Positions 3,894 to 14,901 of a DNA stretch of 35,452 bases are shown one piece after another (the first letter of the stretch is position 1; each line of letters starts with the position of its first letter). Location: the IMG/VR virus record IMGVR_UViG_2563366975_000004; one strand, 5' to 3'. The translations under genes were made by a program, and so were the position numbers. The notes under the pieces are model-generated. The model had not been told where the DNA came from, did no database searches, and saw only the letters and a list, made by a program, of their open reading frames with translations. The stretch comes from a virus (taxonomy: Duplodnaviria; Heunggongvirae; Uroviricota; Caudoviricetes).

Positions 3894-3972
3894 TTTGTTT
3901 TACCTCATTACAGATTTAAGGGTGAACAAATCCCTGCCATTGCTGGCATATAAAAATGAAACTGGATATTAA

Positions 3973-4182
3973 TTACGGCGCTGTTTTTAATCCTGCCGGG
4001 ATTTCGTTATTGTCCATGTGAATAACTTTATCGACCGGATAACAGTTGCCGGGAATTTTCTGTTCCGCTGCGGCAGCCATGCATTCTTTCATTGAGTTGT
4101 ACATGCCGGTGATTGCATCAAGCGACTCACCAGTATTGAGATGTACAGTCAAAATGAGTACGAATAATGTGTTCATCGCCAC
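3973..4182 (-). CDS. Small membrane/secreted protein, YdfD-like by position (69 aa)
   Basis: N-terminal hydrophobic segment MAMNTLFVLILTVHL; lies immediately downstream of the dicB-like gene as ydfD does in Qin. Confidence 0.45.
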   Translation of the reverse strand: MAMNTLFVLILTVHLNTGESLDAITGMYNSMKECMAAAAEQKIPGNCYPVDKVIHMDNNEIPAGLKTAP

Positions 4183-4361
4183 TCTCCGAAAATACCGAGT
4201 TTAAGAAGGGCAATTCTGGAGAGTATGGAATTGTCATTCAGCAGGTAGGGTTCATATTTTCTCATATTGATTGCATCCTCGGTGAAATCCCTGTTACTGA
4301 GCAGAACACCAATATTAAAGCACCCGTCAGACGTATTAACGTTTGGTAGTGACGTTTCCAT
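4173..4361 (-). CDS. dicB: Cell-division inhibitor DicB-like protein (62 aa)
   Basis: 62-aa product with recalled DicB-like motifs (LPNVNTS.GCF.IGV..SN..FTEDAIN.RK); located downstream of a DicF sRNA in the same orientation. Confidence 0.7.
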   Translation of the reverse strand: METSLPNVNTSDGCFNIGVLLSNRDFTEDAINMRKYEPYLLNDNSILSRIALLKLGIFGEWR

Positions 4362-4371
4362 TATCGCGTCC

Positions 4372-4929
4372 TCAACAATGAATTTTTAGCAATTGCTCCA
4401 CAGTCATATTTTTAATTGCGCTCCGGTTTACAAGAGTCCATCCTTGTTTCTCCAGATAAAACCGGAAGGTATCCAGGGTGCAGACCATTGCGTCGTCAGG
4501 AACGGTTTCAGTGAATTTGATATTGCCGTGTTCGTCGAGACGGATAACCAGGGTGCGTCCGTCCCCGTGAATCATTTTGTCGGGAGACGGGGCGTTATTC
4601 TGGCGCAGTTCTGCTTCCATGCGGTCGAACTCAGCAATGTATGCCTCTTTAAATGCAGCGGCTTTTTTGCCAGTGAAGCCCATCACCAGGAAAACGAAGC
4701 CGTTTTTGGTGATTTGGTACATTGGGAGTTTGCGCCCGGTTGAGTCGGTGTATTCGCTTGACACAAAATTGTGCTCAGTGAATTTTGCTGAACAGTCCAG
4801 ATTGCGAATTTTATCCAACACTCGTTCGTGGCGTTTGCCAAAGAACTCGGCGATCGCAACAGACGTAGTGACAGCGCGACCATTTTCGATGGTTACGTCA
4901 GGGTGAGAAAGGGTAAGGATAGTAGCCAT
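4372..4929 (-). CDS. Phage regulatory protein Rha family (about 186 aa, start at internal ATG)
   Basis: Rha-domain motif VTTSVAIAEFFGKRHERVLDKIRNL near N-terminus; GGAGG 8 nt upstream of the ATG at 4929; the 284-aa track ORF extends upstream across an intrinsic terminator so I prefer the internal start. Confidence 0.6.
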   Translation of the reverse strand: MATILTLSHPDVTIENGRAVTTSVAIAEFFGKRHERVLDKIRNLDCSAKFTEHNFVSSEYTDSTGRKLPMYQITKNGFVFLVMGFTGKKAAAFKEAYIAEFDRMEAELRQNNAPSPDKMIHGDGRTLVIRLDEHGNIKFTETVPDDAMVCTLDTFRFYLEKQGWTLVNRSAIKNMTVEQLLKIHC

Positions 4930-5096
4930 GATGGCAGCCTCCGCGATGAATTTGATTAACTCACCACCGAGGTTTTCCACGACCATAAGGGTGGTGAGAC
5001 GTACAGGGGTGGAAATACCGGTCATCACGGAACCCGGCCAGCCTTGCGGCTGCCCTGCACGCCCCACCATAATGCGAATGTGGCTGTGCTTAACGC

Positions 5097-5121
5097 ATAA
5101 AAAAACCGCCTGAGCGCGGTT
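5097..5121 (-). terminator. Rho-independent terminator (minus strand)
   Basis: Inverted repeat aaccgc/gcggtt with 6-nt loop followed on the minus strand by a run of 7 T. Confidence 0.5.
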
Positions 5122-5414
5122 ATGCGCCGTGAATGATTTCGGGTTTCCACGCCCGGCACCCGTTTTATGAGGTGCAGGTGCACTATAATTCCACCCGTTC
5201 TGGTTTTCAATAGCTACATTCAACATTTTCTCTACCTTTCATCACCGAAGTGAACTTTGTTGATGCGGTGCCTGGTGCCTCCAGGTGACGTTAACCAGTT
5301 AACAATTAACGTCGGATACAGAGCATTCCCGTTACGCCCGTAAAAGACCGCTTGTTTTAACTGTTCCGCGTGCGCTGAGCCGCATTCACCGCATCACAAA
5401 ATTCACTTTAAAAA

Positions 5415-5467
5415 GGGCGGCAGAGCAGTCACGGAGTAGAACTGATACCGCCAAAAGTCACCAGAAA
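5415..5467 (-). ncRNA. dicF: DicF small RNA (53 nt)
   Basis: Minus-strand sequence TTTCTGGTGACTTTTGGCGGTATCAGTTCTACTCCGTGACTGCTCTGCCGCCC followed by TTTTT; matches my recollection of E. coli DicF apart from about 2 substitutions. Confidence 0.75.
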
Positions 5468-5802
5468 ATTGATAACAGAGGGCGTTGCAGCGGAGTTGTC
5501 ACTTAAGCGTATGGTCAACCTGACAACCCGGTGTCCTCAACGGGGGAAGGAATAACCCCGCCATACTTACCGCCGCGCCATTTCGCGGATTGCCACAACC
5601 GGAAGCGCACGGTCGACGAAAATTTAACGACAGGCTATCTATGAACCAGCTACCTCACCGAGCGCTTTCGCGTTATGGTCTGACTTTTCAGGGAAATATC
5701 CTTTCAGTAAACTGTCAGTGCCGGATGCTCACCCGTGTCCGGCGCACGCACTCCACCTCACCCGTGGAGAACTCCTTAATCACCAACCCTCAGGAGGGTG
5801 AA

Positions 5803-6078
5803 ATGTCGACTGAAAATGATGAAATCATTAACTCCCTGATACGCCAGATTAATAATTTTGATAAAGCATTGCAGCATGCTGCGGCGCGTAGTGATATAAC
5901 TCTTTTAGCAATTTCATTTCTTGCATCTGTTATGGATAAAAATGAAGTCGTACGACAGAGTCTTGTTGATTATATCGACTCGCTTCAACCCGGCACTTTC
6001 AATCATGAGAGCTTCAATCATGAGAAAGAGCATGTTAAGTCTGTAATTAATTCTCTTATTTTGAATCAAAAGAATTAA
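5803..6078 (+). CDS. Hypothetical protein (91 aa), opposite orientation to the surrounding operon
   Basis: Internal ATG preceded by AGGAGGGTG-aa RBS; AT-rich; contains a tandem 12-bp repeat encoding FNHESFNHE; the 162-aa track ORF upstream extension lacks an RBS. Confidence 0.5.
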   Translation: MSTENDEIINSLIRQINNFDKALQHAAARSDITLLAISFLASVMDKNEVVRQSLVDYIDSLQPGTFNHESFNHEKEHVKSVINSLILNQKN

Positions 6079-6376
6079 TGCTTTTTGTTGCAAAGTAATT
6101 TTCAAGGGGTTCTATTCGAATCCCTTTCTTTTTCATTAACAAGCCAAACCCCTTATCAATGATGTCCATTAGATCCAGGAAGTATTTTTCATGTAAATCC
6201 TGGTTATCAGAGAGCTGCTTCTCTTCGTACAGACCGATAAAGGCACGACGCACGTTACCGGATATAGTATCGATGGTTTCTTTTTCTACGGTACTCAGGT
6301 CAAGAGTCGCCAGTTGGGAACGAACTATATTCGCTGCCATTTCCTGGAATGGCATTGGTAAATCTTTAAATTCCAT
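6056..6376 (-). CDS. Hypothetical protein (106 aa)
   Basis: ORF with GAGG RBS 7 nt upstream of ATG; converges on and overlaps the 3' end of the 5803..6078 gene by 23 nt. Confidence 0.5.
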   Translation of the reverse strand: MEFKDLPMPFQEMAANIVRSQLATLDLSTVEKETIDTISGNVRRAFIGLYEEKQLSDNQDLHEKYFLDLMDIIDKGFGLLMKKKGIRIEPLENYFATKSINSFDSK

Positions 6377-6398
6377 TATTAGCCTCGTTGGTTAGCTA

Positions 6399-6617
6399 TT
6401 AACGTGGGTATGTAACCATTCTGGCAATGCTTAATGCCGCTGCTTTTTCCAGCCTGGTGATATCCTGCTCCAGAGCGGACAGATTTTCAGCCTGCTTAGT
6501 CCTGGCTTCATTGGCCCATTTCAGATCCTGCGCTGCATTAATTTTCTGGCGCATCCACTCATAAAGTTCATCATCGGTATAGTCTGGCGCGATGATGACG
6601 GGTTCTCGTTTCTGCAT
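6399..6617 (-). CDS. YdfC-like small coiled-coil protein (72 aa)
   Basis: 72 aa, same size and relative position as ydfC in the Qin dicB operon. Confidence 0.55.
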   Translation of the reverse strand: MQKREPVIIAPDYTDDELYEWMRQKINAAQDLKWANEARTKQAENLSALEQDITRLEKAAALSIARMVTYPR

Positions 6618-6646
6618 ACTGATTCCTCGCGGTGCTGTTTCGCTTA

Positions 6647-6775
6647 TCAGCCGTTAGATTTTGCCGAACTGGAAAGCACCTGTTTAAATTCGTTGAAGCT
6701 GTGAGCTTCTTCGCCTTCGGCAAGGCCTTCGAAGTATTCTTCGTAAGCCTTTTCCATGATTGTGTCAAAATCCAT
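6647..6775 (-). CDS. YdfB-like small protein (42 aa; not in ORF track)
   Basis: Hand translation MDFDTIMEKAYEEYFEGLAEGEEAHSFNEFKQVLSSSAKSNG with double stop; GGTGAG RBS; size and position match ydfB. Confidence 0.5.
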   Translation of the reverse strand: MDFDTIMEKAYEEYFEGLAEGEEAHSFNEFKQVLSSSAKSNG

Positions 6776-6776
6776 A

Positions 6777-6932
6777 TCACTCACCTGAGTTTCTTTCCAG
6801 CCAGCGACGGGCACCATTTTCGGTTTTAAACGTTTTGCTTTTGGTATACGTCATTGCGGTGAACGTACCGTCCTGGTTGGGGAACACGCCACATACCAGA
6901 GATTCGCTGTTGCCAAGATCGATAGTATCCAT
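6777..6932 (-). CDS. YdfA-like small protein (51 aa from internal ATG)
   Basis: MDTIDLGNSESLVCGVFPNQDGTFTAMTYTKSKTFKTENGARRWLERNSGE; GAGG 5 nt upstream of ATG; stop abuts ydfB-like start. Confidence 0.55.
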   Translation of the reverse strand: MDTIDLGNSESLVCGVFPNQDGTFTAMTYTKSKTFKTENGARRWLERNSGE

Positions 6933-7117
6933 GCTGACCTCATTTCCCCTTAACGCCGGGGTAGCGGAACTAAAAAACTGCTGCGCTGTTATATAAAGTG
7001 TTCCCGCCGTCATGTTCATACGCCTCGGGCTGGCTACTTAACCCCTGACCACTGCCGGGTAACTCGAAGTATTGCCTGGCGTTCTGTGGGGCGGGGTGGG
7101 TTGGTATGAAAAGAAGG

Positions 7118-7155
7118 ATACCCATAGGTATTTAAAAAGTAAATACCCATGGGTA
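7118..7155. promoter_or_regulatory. Left-operator-like palindromic sites (2 copies) beside the repressor gene
   Basis: ATACCCATAGGTAT and the perfect palindrome TACCCATGGGTA; share ACC-N-GGTA half-sites with the three sites between repressor and cro-like genes. Confidence 0.45.
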
Positions 7156-7197
7156 AATTTTTGCGGTGTCTTAACTGGTGACTAGTTGTTTGGTGAG

Positions 7198-7617
7198 CTA
7201 TGATGCGTTTTGTGCTTTCTTTTTACGGATTTCTTCGTAGATCATATTGTAATACTGTTTTTTCTCTTCAAGAGTTTTTAATAATTTATCCGCTTCACTT
7301 TCTGGCAGTTCGTCTAAGAGATCTAAAAAAATACGTTGTCGTGGCGTTAGAACCCTTGTTTCATAACTGGAGGCTGTGTTCGTTGATGATGAAACGATAC
7401 CATCCATCCATCCCCGGGGTAACCCAAAGGACTCTTCGATAATCTCCACCATATCATCAGCGATCCGTTTTTTTCCCTTTTTCCCCTCTGGGTACAACAT
7501 TCTTGATACATAAGAAGGCTCGCGCCCGATCTTTCTGGCCACGTTAACCGCTTTACCATCGCATTTCTCATCACGAATTTTGATGAGTTGCTGTCGTCTA
7601 AATTCATATTTGTCCAT
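7198..7617 (-). CDS. Prophage immunity repressor (CI/DicA functional analogue), HTH protein (139 aa)
   Basis: HTH-like segment GKAVNVARKIGREPSYVSRM; divergent from a Cro-like gene with repeated operator sites in the intergenic region. Confidence 0.7.
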   Translation of the reverse strand: MDKYEFRRQQLIKIRDEKCDGKAVNVARKIGREPSYVSRMLYPEGKKGKKRIADDMVEIIEESFGLPRGWMDGIVSSSTNTASSYETRVLTPRQRIFLDLLDELPESEADKLLKTLEEKKQYYNMIYEEIRKKKAQNAS

Positions 7618-7637
7618 AGGTAAATAATAGATGCGAT

Positions 7638-7689
7638 TACCGCAAGGTAAACAACCTGTGGGTATTGACTTTTGTTTACCTGTGGGTAT
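7638..7689. promoter_or_regulatory. Right-operator region: three sites with ACC-N4-GGTA(T) symmetry between repressor and cro-like gene
   Basis: TACCGCAAGGTA (7638..7649), ACCTGTGGGTAT (7654..7665), TACCTGTGGGTAT (7677..7689); followed by AAGGAG RBS and ATG at 7718. Confidence 0.55.
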
Positions 7690-7717
7690 TCTTTGCTGTG
7701 TTTACTAAGGAGTAGCT

Positions 7718-7999
7718 ATGGAAGAATTAAGAATATTTCTCAATTCTCTTTCGTCAGATGAACAGCGTATGTTTGCATGCGAGTGTGGTACCAGCATCGG
7801 TTATCTAAGAAAGGCATTGAGTAAAGGTCAAGTGTTAGGGGCATCGTTATGTGTCCTTATTGAGCGAGCCAGTAATGGTGAAGTTACACGTCAGCAACTA
7901 AGGCCTTTTGATTGGATGAATATTTGGCCCGAGCTGGAAGATACCAAAACGTTAACACAACCACTTTCTAGGAGCTTGATTCATGAAAATCAAGCATGA
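7718..7999 (+). CDS. Cro-like / YdaS-family HTH regulator (93 aa)
   Basis: First gene of rightward operon; HTH-like GTSIGYLRKALSKGQ; resembles YdaS-type Cro analogues of Rac-like prophages. Confidence 0.6.
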   Translation: MEELRIFLNSLSSDEQRMFACECGTSIGYLRKALSKGQVLGASLCVLIERASNGEVTRQQLRPFDWMNIWPELEDTKTLTQPLSRSLIHENQA

Positions 8000-14574: not shown

Positions 14575-14745
14575 GCGGGTGCTTGAGGCTATCTGTCTCA
14601 GGCATGAACACCAAAAGGCAGATAGAGAAAAGCCCCAGTTAACATTACGCGTCCTGCAAGACGCTTAACATTAATCTGAGGCCATATCTATGCGACACAT
14701 AGAGATTAGCCTCTTACGGACCGAAAGGTCAAGGAGAAGCAGGCT
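14575..14745 (+). promoter_or_regulatory. hok mRNA leader with mok-like upstream reading frame
   Basis: Leader segments gcttgaggctatctgtctcagg and tagcctcttacgg...caaggagaagcaggctATG resemble the recalled R1 hok/sok leader. Confidence 0.45.
14630..14700 (-). ncRNA. Expected Sok-like antisense RNA (position approximate)
   Basis: Inferred from hok/sok locus architecture only; antisense to the mok start region; no independent sequence signature identified. Confidence 0.25.
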
Positions 14746-14901
14746 ATGAAGCAGCAAAAGGCGATGTTAATCGCCCTGATCGTCATCTGTTTAACCGTCA
14801 TAGTGACGGCACTGGTAACGAGGAAAGACCTCTGCGAGGTACGAATCCGAACCGGCCAGACGGAGGTCGCTGTCTTCACAGCTTACGAACCTGAGGAGTA
14901 A
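14746..14901 (+). CDS. hok: Hok/Gef-family type I toxin (51 aa; not in ORF track)
   Basis: MKQQKAMLIALIVICLTVIVTALVTRKDLCEVRIRTGQTEVAVFTAYEPEE closely matches the Hok/Gef consensus as I recall it; AAGGAG RBS. Confidence 0.8.
   Translation: MKQQKAMLIALIVICLTVIVTALVTRKDLCEVRIRTGQTEVAVFTAYEPEE

Follow-up and report, generated by a model that had tools for sequence, protein, structure and literature searches.

The window analysed here, the complete 35,452-nucleotide stretch of Caudoviricetes DNA catalogued in IMG/VR as IMGVR_UViG_2563366975_000004, carries at positions 3973-6932 a row of small genes resembling the division-inhibition operon dicBF of the Qin prophage of E. coli K-12, with a Rha-family gene standing between dicF and dicB. 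The locus raises the question of whether this is the known operon, and what the additional genes contribute to it. Judged from its sequence, the region is an ordinary copy of the known E. coli prophage dicBF operon, which encodes the DicF RNA and DicB, with two cassettes inserted into it. A BLAST comparison with K-12 returned three collinear blocks, 6971-6379, 5788-5251 and 4386-3401, with nucleotide identities of 96%, 93% and 84%, respectively. The blocks are parted by exactly two insertions, and the K-12 junctions are contiguous at both. Insert 1 (5789-6378, 590 bp) lies between ydfC and dicF, and insert 2 (4387-5250, 864 bp) between dicF and dicB, which gives the minus-strand order ydfA-ydfB-ydfC-(hypothetical gene and opposite-strand orphan open reading frame (ORF))-dicF-(isrK-C4-rha)-dicB-ydfD-like. 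A first-pass annotation, made from the letters alone, had recognised a dicBF-type module here, and dicF, dicB, ydfA, ydfB, ydfC and a ydfD-like gene were all recovered in the region, all on the minus strand; it had overlooked insert 1, which is itself a mosaic. The operon shares with Qin (ydfABC-dicF-dicB-ydfD) the order, sizes and overlaps of its genes, 96% identity over ydfABC and 93% over the dicF region, a DicF with differences at only 2 of 53 nt and with the same terminator, and members of the DicB and YdfD families. It differs in the 590-bp and 864-bp insertions, in its DicB (58% identical) and YdfD (about 65% identical), in a repressor unrelated to DicA, in integration at ompW and in belonging to a more complete prophage.

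In order to see what separates dicF from dicB, we examined insert 2, which is bounded by AAAGTTCA and AAAATTCA. The Rha-family gene that the first-pass annotation had placed there is real (PF09669, TIGR02681) and absent from K-12. Beyond that earlier description, a promoter-like site, a small RNA (sRNA), a terminator and an antisense RNA were found ahead of it, and the family matches identify insert 2 as a complete IsrK/C4 antisense-RNA cassette of the Gifsy-1 isrK-anrP, P1 c4-ant and P4 cI type. All of its elements lie on the minus strand. The promoter-like site, TTGAAA-17-TATAGT at 5182..5210, is the best sigma-70 match in 3900-7800 (10/12, by consensus only); it ends 7 nt ahead of the first base of isrK and is placed for a transcription start there, and the alignment shows the same geometry in mEp460, ST64B and Stx phages (TTGATT-17-TACACT). 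The isrK-like sRNA itself occupies 5099..5175 (RF01394, 67.7 bits vs a gathering score of 50), and the terminator scan placed an intrinsic terminator, a hairpin at 5104-5121 followed by a U-run, within it; a weak match to RF03163 c4-a1b1 covers 5136-5188. The C4-type antisense RNA follows at 4987..5074, with a full-length match to RF01695 (clan CL00128) of 81.9 bits vs a gathering score of 45. Its minimum free energy fold is the family structure, a long closing stem with two inner hairpins, and its 3' motif CACCACC is invariant in the homologue alignment. The C4 specificity boxes, CCGUGAUGA (5022-5030) and UUUCCAC (5009-5015), face two targets. IsrK carries the complementary boxes GUGGAAA (5144-5150) and UCAUUCACGG (5127-5136), and the downstream target (4938..4980) carries GUGGAAA (4974-4980) and UCAUCGCGGAGG (4938-4949), the second of which holds the Rha Shine-Dalgarno (SD) sequence GGAGG. 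The ATG at 4929, 8 nt past GGAGG, opens a 185-aa Rha-family regulator or antirepressor gene (4372..4929; TIGR02681, 108.7 bits vs 45.95; PF09669, 106.5 vs 29.9), with the Rha domain at aa 10-111 of the protein and a stop codon that overlaps the dicB SD. PHROG annotations and the Gifsy-1 AnrP precedent are all that point to an antirepressor activity of this protein.

The pairing between C4 and its two targets is reflected in how the cassette varies. We compared eight homologous cassettes by a matrix of cognate and non-cognate duplex energies, which was preferred to a count of paired alignment columns because some rows of the MAFFT alignment have the short boxes displaced by 3 nt. The C4 boxes differ among the eight homologues yet change together with the IsrK boxes and the Rha-SD boxes. 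For the upstream (IsrK) target the cognate C4 duplex was the most stable in 8/8 cases, with mean energies of -33.6 kcal/mol for cognate and -17.5 kcal/mol for non-cognate pairs; for the downstream (Rha SD) target it was the most stable in 5/8, the means being -31.5 vs -18.3 kcal/mol. The window's own downstream C4:target duplex had an energy of -29.5 kcal/mol.

Cassettes of this kind have precedents in several mobile elements. In P1/P7 immI (c4-icd-ant) and in P4 (seqA-cI RNA-seqC), a C4/CI-type RNA is embedded in the transcript that it controls; the P1/P7 c4 mechanism was reportedly described by Citron and Schuster in 1990 and by Biere and colleagues in 1992. As in P1/P7 c4 and P4 cI, the RNA of the window has two short boxes with one upstream and one downstream target, the latter over the ribosome-binding site of the first gene, and its boxes vary from one relative to the next in step with their targets. 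Unlike those systems, the controlled gene here is of the Rha family rather than Icd/Ant or the P4 replication genes, and the host element is a lambdoid prophage. Counterparts are also found in mEp460, ST64B, Stx1a/Stx2a phages and PhiR49_2, which share the isrK-C4-Rha order and the N-terminal domain of Rha with the window (67-77% nucleotide identity), but differ in the C-terminal part of Rha and in the specificity boxes. Their cassettes are part of the rightward early operon, flanked by cII-like and replication genes, whereas that of the window lies leftward, between dicF and dicB, and its position here is therefore a product of lambdoid mosaicism. A relative in Salmonella is Gifsy-1 isrK-orf45-anrP (Hershko-Shalev et al., 2016, PMC4825925), whose authors state that the IsrK locus is homologous to P4 seqA/CI. 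Both loci proceed from a promoter through IsrK and an intrinsic terminator (described as leaky in Gifsy-1) to a structured RNA, whose leader AUG lies about 106-107 nt from the start, and end in an antirepressor-like gene, and in both IsrK is complementary to the downstream leader. In the window the leader AUG (5068-5070) lies inside C4, is invariant and stands 106 nt from the isrK start; Gifsy-1 orf45 starts at +107 (PMC4825925), and the leader AUG corresponds to that start. Unlike the separate 45-codon ORF of Gifsy-1, the leader frame here is fused in frame to Rha, so that a 232-aa Rha isoform is possible. A further difference is that this cassette sits within a dicBF operon and that of Gifsy-1 beside a Q-like antiterminator.

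We then turned to the two elements on either side of the cassette. The dicF sRNA gene, allele U12/C29, was located at 5415..5467 on the minus strand (RF00039, 71.5 bits vs a gathering score of 48); the Rfam match covers 5415-5466 and model positions 1-52 (full-length), and 5415-5467 is the equivalent of the 53-nt K-12 gene. The first-pass annotation had put the distance from K-12 at about two substitutions, and an alignment with MG1655 dicF that took in 35 nt beyond either end gave exactly two, G12U and U29C, with one further difference in each flank. The terminator, also singled out earlier as worth checking, is retained: the hairpin GGCGGUA...UGCCGCC followed by UUUUU folds at -15.3 kcal/mol vs -15.9 kcal/mol in K-12, and both substitutions fall outside its stem. 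A degenerate DicF copy is ruled out by the Rfam score, the K-12 alignment and the retained hairpin and U-run. DicF was found in 4028/5426 complete E. coli genomes, and in 90 chromosome or plasmid records the best match is exactly the allele of the window. On the other side of the cassette, the DicB-like gene (4173..4361, minus strand, 62 aa) was likewise borne out, with full-length matches to PF05358 (111.7 bits vs 27) and NF049927 (103.4 vs a cut-off of 100, barely above it). It is a divergent allele, with 36/62 residues identical to K-12 DicB. Two main DicB alleles, about 58-64% identical, occur in the 120 IMG/VR dicF loci sampled, approximately 74 of them K-12-like and 24 window-like, and only the K-12-like allele has been characterised; the MinC-dependent division block and the inhibition of ManYZ are assumed for the DicB of the window by analogy with it.

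Taken together, these findings make it very probable that a lambdoid prophage carries here its early-left dicBF operon, to which a self-contained isrK/C4-rha module has been added. By analogy with K-12, the short 139-aa repressor encoded upstream of ydfA, which is unrelated to DicA, would keep the operon promoter off. Once it is relieved, a polycistronic RNA would be made, from which RNase III and RNase E would cut out DicF, with the 3' end formed at DicF's own terminator. DicF, together with Hfq, would block the translation of ftsZ and other mRNAs, and read-through would yield DicB, with its MinC-dependent division block and its inhibition of the phage receptor ManYZ, as well as the YdfD-like lysis protein. 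Regulation and processing of dicBF in K-12 are described in PMC10448788 and PMC5069750, and DicB and ManYZ in PMC6832061. Within the cassette, IsrK and C4 would be made from the cassette's own promoter-like site; C4 would mask the Rha ribosome-binding site, keeping the antirepressor-like Rha off, and IsrK, which bears the same target boxes, would counteract C4. No terminator is predicted between rha and dicB, and because dicB starts 10 nt past the rha stop codon, the cassette would add both a second terminator and a second, RNA-gated promoter upstream of dicB. Several points weigh against this reading. The promoter is recognised by its resemblance to the consensus, and what is said of RNA processing and of Hfq is carried over from K-12 and Salmonella. 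The DicB of the window shares only 58% of its residues with the characterised K-12 protein, whose MinC and ManYZ activities it is assumed to have. In the published Gifsy-1 model IsrK is an activator that acts through mRNA structure, not the counterpart of a C4 repressor, so that the roles given here to the two RNAs are tentative. The frame over isrK and C4 is open in the lambdoid homologues with the leader AUG in frame with Rha, which makes a longer Rha isoform possible, and the prophage carries an IS21-family element and may be defective.

The open frame bears directly on how the cassette is annotated. RefSeq gives a Rha coding sequence of 284 aa (4372-5226) that crosses the promoter-like site, isrK, the terminator and C4, and if it were right, a single Ash-Rha protein would be made from the ATG at 5226 and the isrK and C4 matches would be coincidences inside a coding region. 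The ORF is indeed open over its whole length, phrog_995 spans all of it, Pfam Phage_ASH (PF10554) matches aa 14-109 with 60.8 bits, and the frame is likewise open, and even longer, in mEp460, ST64B and the Stx phages. However, both RNA matches lie far above their gathering thresholds, the supposed coding sequence has a promoter-like site and an intrinsic terminator with its U-run inside it, and its variation clusters in the short boxes that co-vary as RNA partners. We counted substitutions by codon position in an alignment of the window with the cassettes of mEp460, ST64B, an Stx1a phage and an Stx2a phage. Upstream of the ATG at 4929 the counts at the three positions were 44/51/42 in isrK, 67/59/70 in C4 and 49/51/51 in the linker (236/251/261 when pooled), whereas from this ATG on, in the Rha N-terminal domain, they were 190/146/394. 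The third-position excess begins only at 4929, and therefore the gene under coding selection starts there, with 185 aa. In addition, the P88 frame is broken by 10-nt and 2-nt insertions over which the RNA elements persist, and the equivalent Gifsy-1 stretch was shown experimentally to be an sRNA and a 45-codon leader (PMC4825925). A 284-aa protein is very unlikely on these grounds. The Ash match coincides with the isrK and C4 stretch, and the matching sequence (4930-5226) has no codon-position bias and contains the promoter-like site and the terminator; it appears to be translated RNA. The same may largely hold for PF10554 and for the N-terminal extensions of many phage 'Rha' or 'antirepressor' annotations, such as the 383-aa ORFs of mEp460 and ST64B. 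A different alternative places the novelty in DicF itself, whose two substitutions could have changed its range of targets, as the first-pass annotation had suggested. Experiments have mapped the pairing with xylR to the 5' end of DicF, and ftsZ and pykA are paired by its 3' part (PMC5069750); G12U falls within the 5' region, and U29C adjoins the ACUCC anti-SD used on ftsZ. When RNAduplex was run on the full-length molecules, pairing DicF with its targets and C4 with its flanks, the duplexes were too long to be realistic, and segment-wise duplexes were used instead; these are simple models that leave out Hfq and intramolecular structure. G12U breaks the centre of the 13-bp DicF(5-17):xylR(+8..+20) helix, and the xylR duplex falls from -20.3 kcal/mol for the K-12 allele to -14.5 kcal/mol. 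U29C costs 1.3 kcal/mol on ftsZ (K-12 ftsZ -29..+1; -27.9 to -26.6 kcal/mol), and the duplexes with manX (-33.9 and -34.0 kcal/mol) and pykA (-26.4 and -25.5 kcal/mol) are practically the same for the two alleles. Positions 12 and 29 read G/U, the K-12 allele, in 99 of the 120 IMG/VR dicF loci, A/U in 14, U/U in 5 and U/C in 2. C29 is accordingly rare, but natural variation between G, A and U at position 12 speaks against a strong constraint or a special new function there. No new target was identified among these duplexes, and G12U is predicted to weaken the pairing with xylR only. That part of the earlier suggestion remains weakly plausible, and a functionally distinct DicF is, in our view, possible but on the doubtful side.

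Whether the composite still works, and for whom, leaves two further readings. The module could be the inert cargo of a decaying prophage, with its genes and RNAs recognisable but no longer expressed or selected; this would fit the IS21-family element that interrupts the prophage, the other position of this element in the nearest genome, and the truncation of the hypothetical gene in insert 1. Against this, all operon ORFs are intact, with SD sequences and K-12-like overlaps, the RNA structures and their co-varying boxes are preserved, hundreds of genomes retain this arrangement, and even the cryptic Qin prophage expresses dicBF (PMC10448788), so that we regard inert cargo as unlikely. Conversely, the cassette could have rewired the operon. 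It would then give dicB and the ydfD-like lysis gene a second, RNA-gated promoter that is independent of the prophage repressor and of DicF, and Rha, made after derepression or when IsrK exceeds C4, would act as an antirepressor that locks the operon on by positive feedback or activates other prophages of the cell whose repressors are short and non-cleavable. The 10-nt passage from rha into dicB, with no terminator predicted in it, is compatible with this; so is the shortness of the resident 139-aa repressor, a trait it shares with DicA, which is known to be under antirepressor control (PMC10448788). A fixed pairing of Rha with one repressor was unsupported: in the small sample of IMG/VR loci compared, the cassette occurs with DicA-like and with other repressors, and the 139-aa type occurs also where the cassette is absent. 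The association of the cassette with several repressor types weighs against a dedicated Rha-repressor partnership, and we consider the rewired operon rather doubtful. A dicBF operon carrying a self-contained RNA-controlled module is the reading we prefer to both.

The arrangement is not confined to the window. Several complete E. coli chromosomes are 100% identical over the stretch, and their RefSeq annotation already includes the three genes of 51, 42 and 72 aa together with dicB and a 'Rha family' gene. Among 5426 complete E. coli genomes, the Rha-dicB junction was present in 266 and the dicF-isrK junction in 387 (about 5-7%), and the entire 2960-bp region was found in 44. No account of the composite turned up in a literature search that combined dicB, dicF, Rha, antirepressor and C4; it is a mosaic in which every part belongs to a described family. 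In these prophages RefSeq leaves dicF, isrK and C4 unannotated and starts the Rha gene 99 codons further upstream, so the practical value of our results lies mostly in annotation, namely in correcting the Rha and 'Ash' calls. In carriers of the composite, about 5-7% of complete E. coli genomes, dicB stands behind two terminators and an RNA-controlled cassette, and therefore results on dicBF regulation in K-12 need not carry over directly. The understanding of how DicF, DicB or C4-type RNAs act is unchanged.

The remaining genes of the operon, all on the minus strand, follow K-12 closely. An alignment with K-12 dicB and ydfABCD, proposed in the first-pass annotation, gave residue identities for all five proteins, and the small YdfA, YdfB and YdfC genes are present with the sizes it had named, 51, 42 and 72 aa. 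The first gene, ydfA-like (DUF1391; 6777..6932), matches PF07151 with 96.2 bits, is 49/51 identical to K-12 YdfA and is a 51-aa coding sequence in RefSeq in an identical genome. The ydfB-like gene (6647..6775) is 39/42 identical to K-12 YdfB, matches phrog_2061 and is a 42-aa hypothetical protein in RefSeq. The 72-aa gene (6399..6617) is 69/72 identical to K-12 YdfC, matches phrog_1744 and is named ydfC in RefSeq. At the other end, the 67-aa ydfD-like gene (DUF1482; 3973..4176; PF07358, 69.8 bits) is identical to K-12 YdfD, annotated as 'lysis protein', at 42/63 positions, and it overlaps dicB by 4 bases, as in K-12. The first-pass annotation had counted three small genes as missed by its ORF list. 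YdfB, inside a 56-aa ORF, and YdfA, inside an 80-aa ORF, were indeed obscured in that mechanical list, but this is an artefact of the list, as both are present in RefSeq, with 42 and 51 aa, respectively; no third protein gene that the list had missed could be identified in 3973-6932.

Insert 1 consists of two unlike parts. Next to ydfC lies a 106-aa hypothetical gene (6056..6376, minus strand), absent from K-12, which matches positions 1-106 of the 124 of phrog_6937 and is shortened at its 3' end. Its family is an Escherichia/Salmonella prophage family of usual length 124 aa with 234 homologues, all unnamed; in Pfam and NCBIfam no named family was found for it, and in PHROGs only unnamed ones. 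This part of the insert (6060-6378) recurs beside ydfC in 17/120 IMG/VR dicF loci, and further loci share only its 5' half. The other part, a 271-bp piece found in only 3/120 dicF loci, contains a 91-aa orphan ORF (5803..6078) on the plus strand, opposite to the dicBF operon, which overlaps the 3' end of the truncated 106-aa gene. Its strong SD sequence, GGAGGG, lies at 5793-5798, and the terminator scan gave a terminator-like hairpin at 6104-6126. Searches of Pfam, PHROGs, NCBIfam and PADLOC gave no match for it; it has only 15 homologues, those named being all from E. coli, and a copy with 91% identity has kept this frame whole. This ORF could be a moron expressed in the lysogen, or a source of convergent transcription into the operon. 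PADLOC gave zero matches for any protein of region 3973-6932.

The surroundings of the operon differ from those in Qin. The prophage is lambdoid and integrated beside ompW; the window begins at its integrase, beyond which come an early region of the YdaS/YdaT type, hok/sok, a Q-like antiterminator, tRNAs and the genes for lysis and the head. The first-pass label 'Qin-type' fits the operon, which is of the dicBF type, but not the immunity region. The 139-aa repressor upstream of ydfA (7198-7617) is identical to DicA at only 24/139 positions and scores 24.5 bits with the DicA model NF007257 vs a cut-off of 101, and because of this the immunity region is not of the Qin type. Between the repressor gene and ydfA, in the part without a K-12 counterpart, lies a palindrome at 7119-7155 (TACCCATGGGTATTTAC ... 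AAATACCTATGGGTA, 16 paired positions), a candidate operator of the operon promoter. The IS21-family element (ISEc10-like, 2411 bp) is located at 21596-24006, inside a SASA-family esterase gene; in the otherwise near-identical Ecol_316 prophage the same element has the opposite orientation and splits the portal gene instead, so that the window must derive from another strain. The hok/sok-type toxin-antitoxin RNA was placed at 14577-14748 (plus strand; sok, 106.7 bits), where RefSeq annotates hokD in a near-identical genome. The spacer between dicF and dicB (5256..5403, minus strand) shares 93% identity with its K-12 counterpart. Both resemble the prophage sRNA STnc100 (RF02076), below the family threshold, over a stretch that includes the motif CACCUGGAGGCACCAGGCACC; the match scores 35.6 bits here and 34.4 bits in K-12 (L001 2933-3142), with a gathering score of 47. 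Two full-length STnc100 copies are present elsewhere in the window on the plus strand, at 19700-19893 and 20169-20357 (138 and 132.5 bits, respectively), just downstream of the tRNAs at 19277-19349 and 19360-19433 and between the Q-like antiterminator and the lysis genes.

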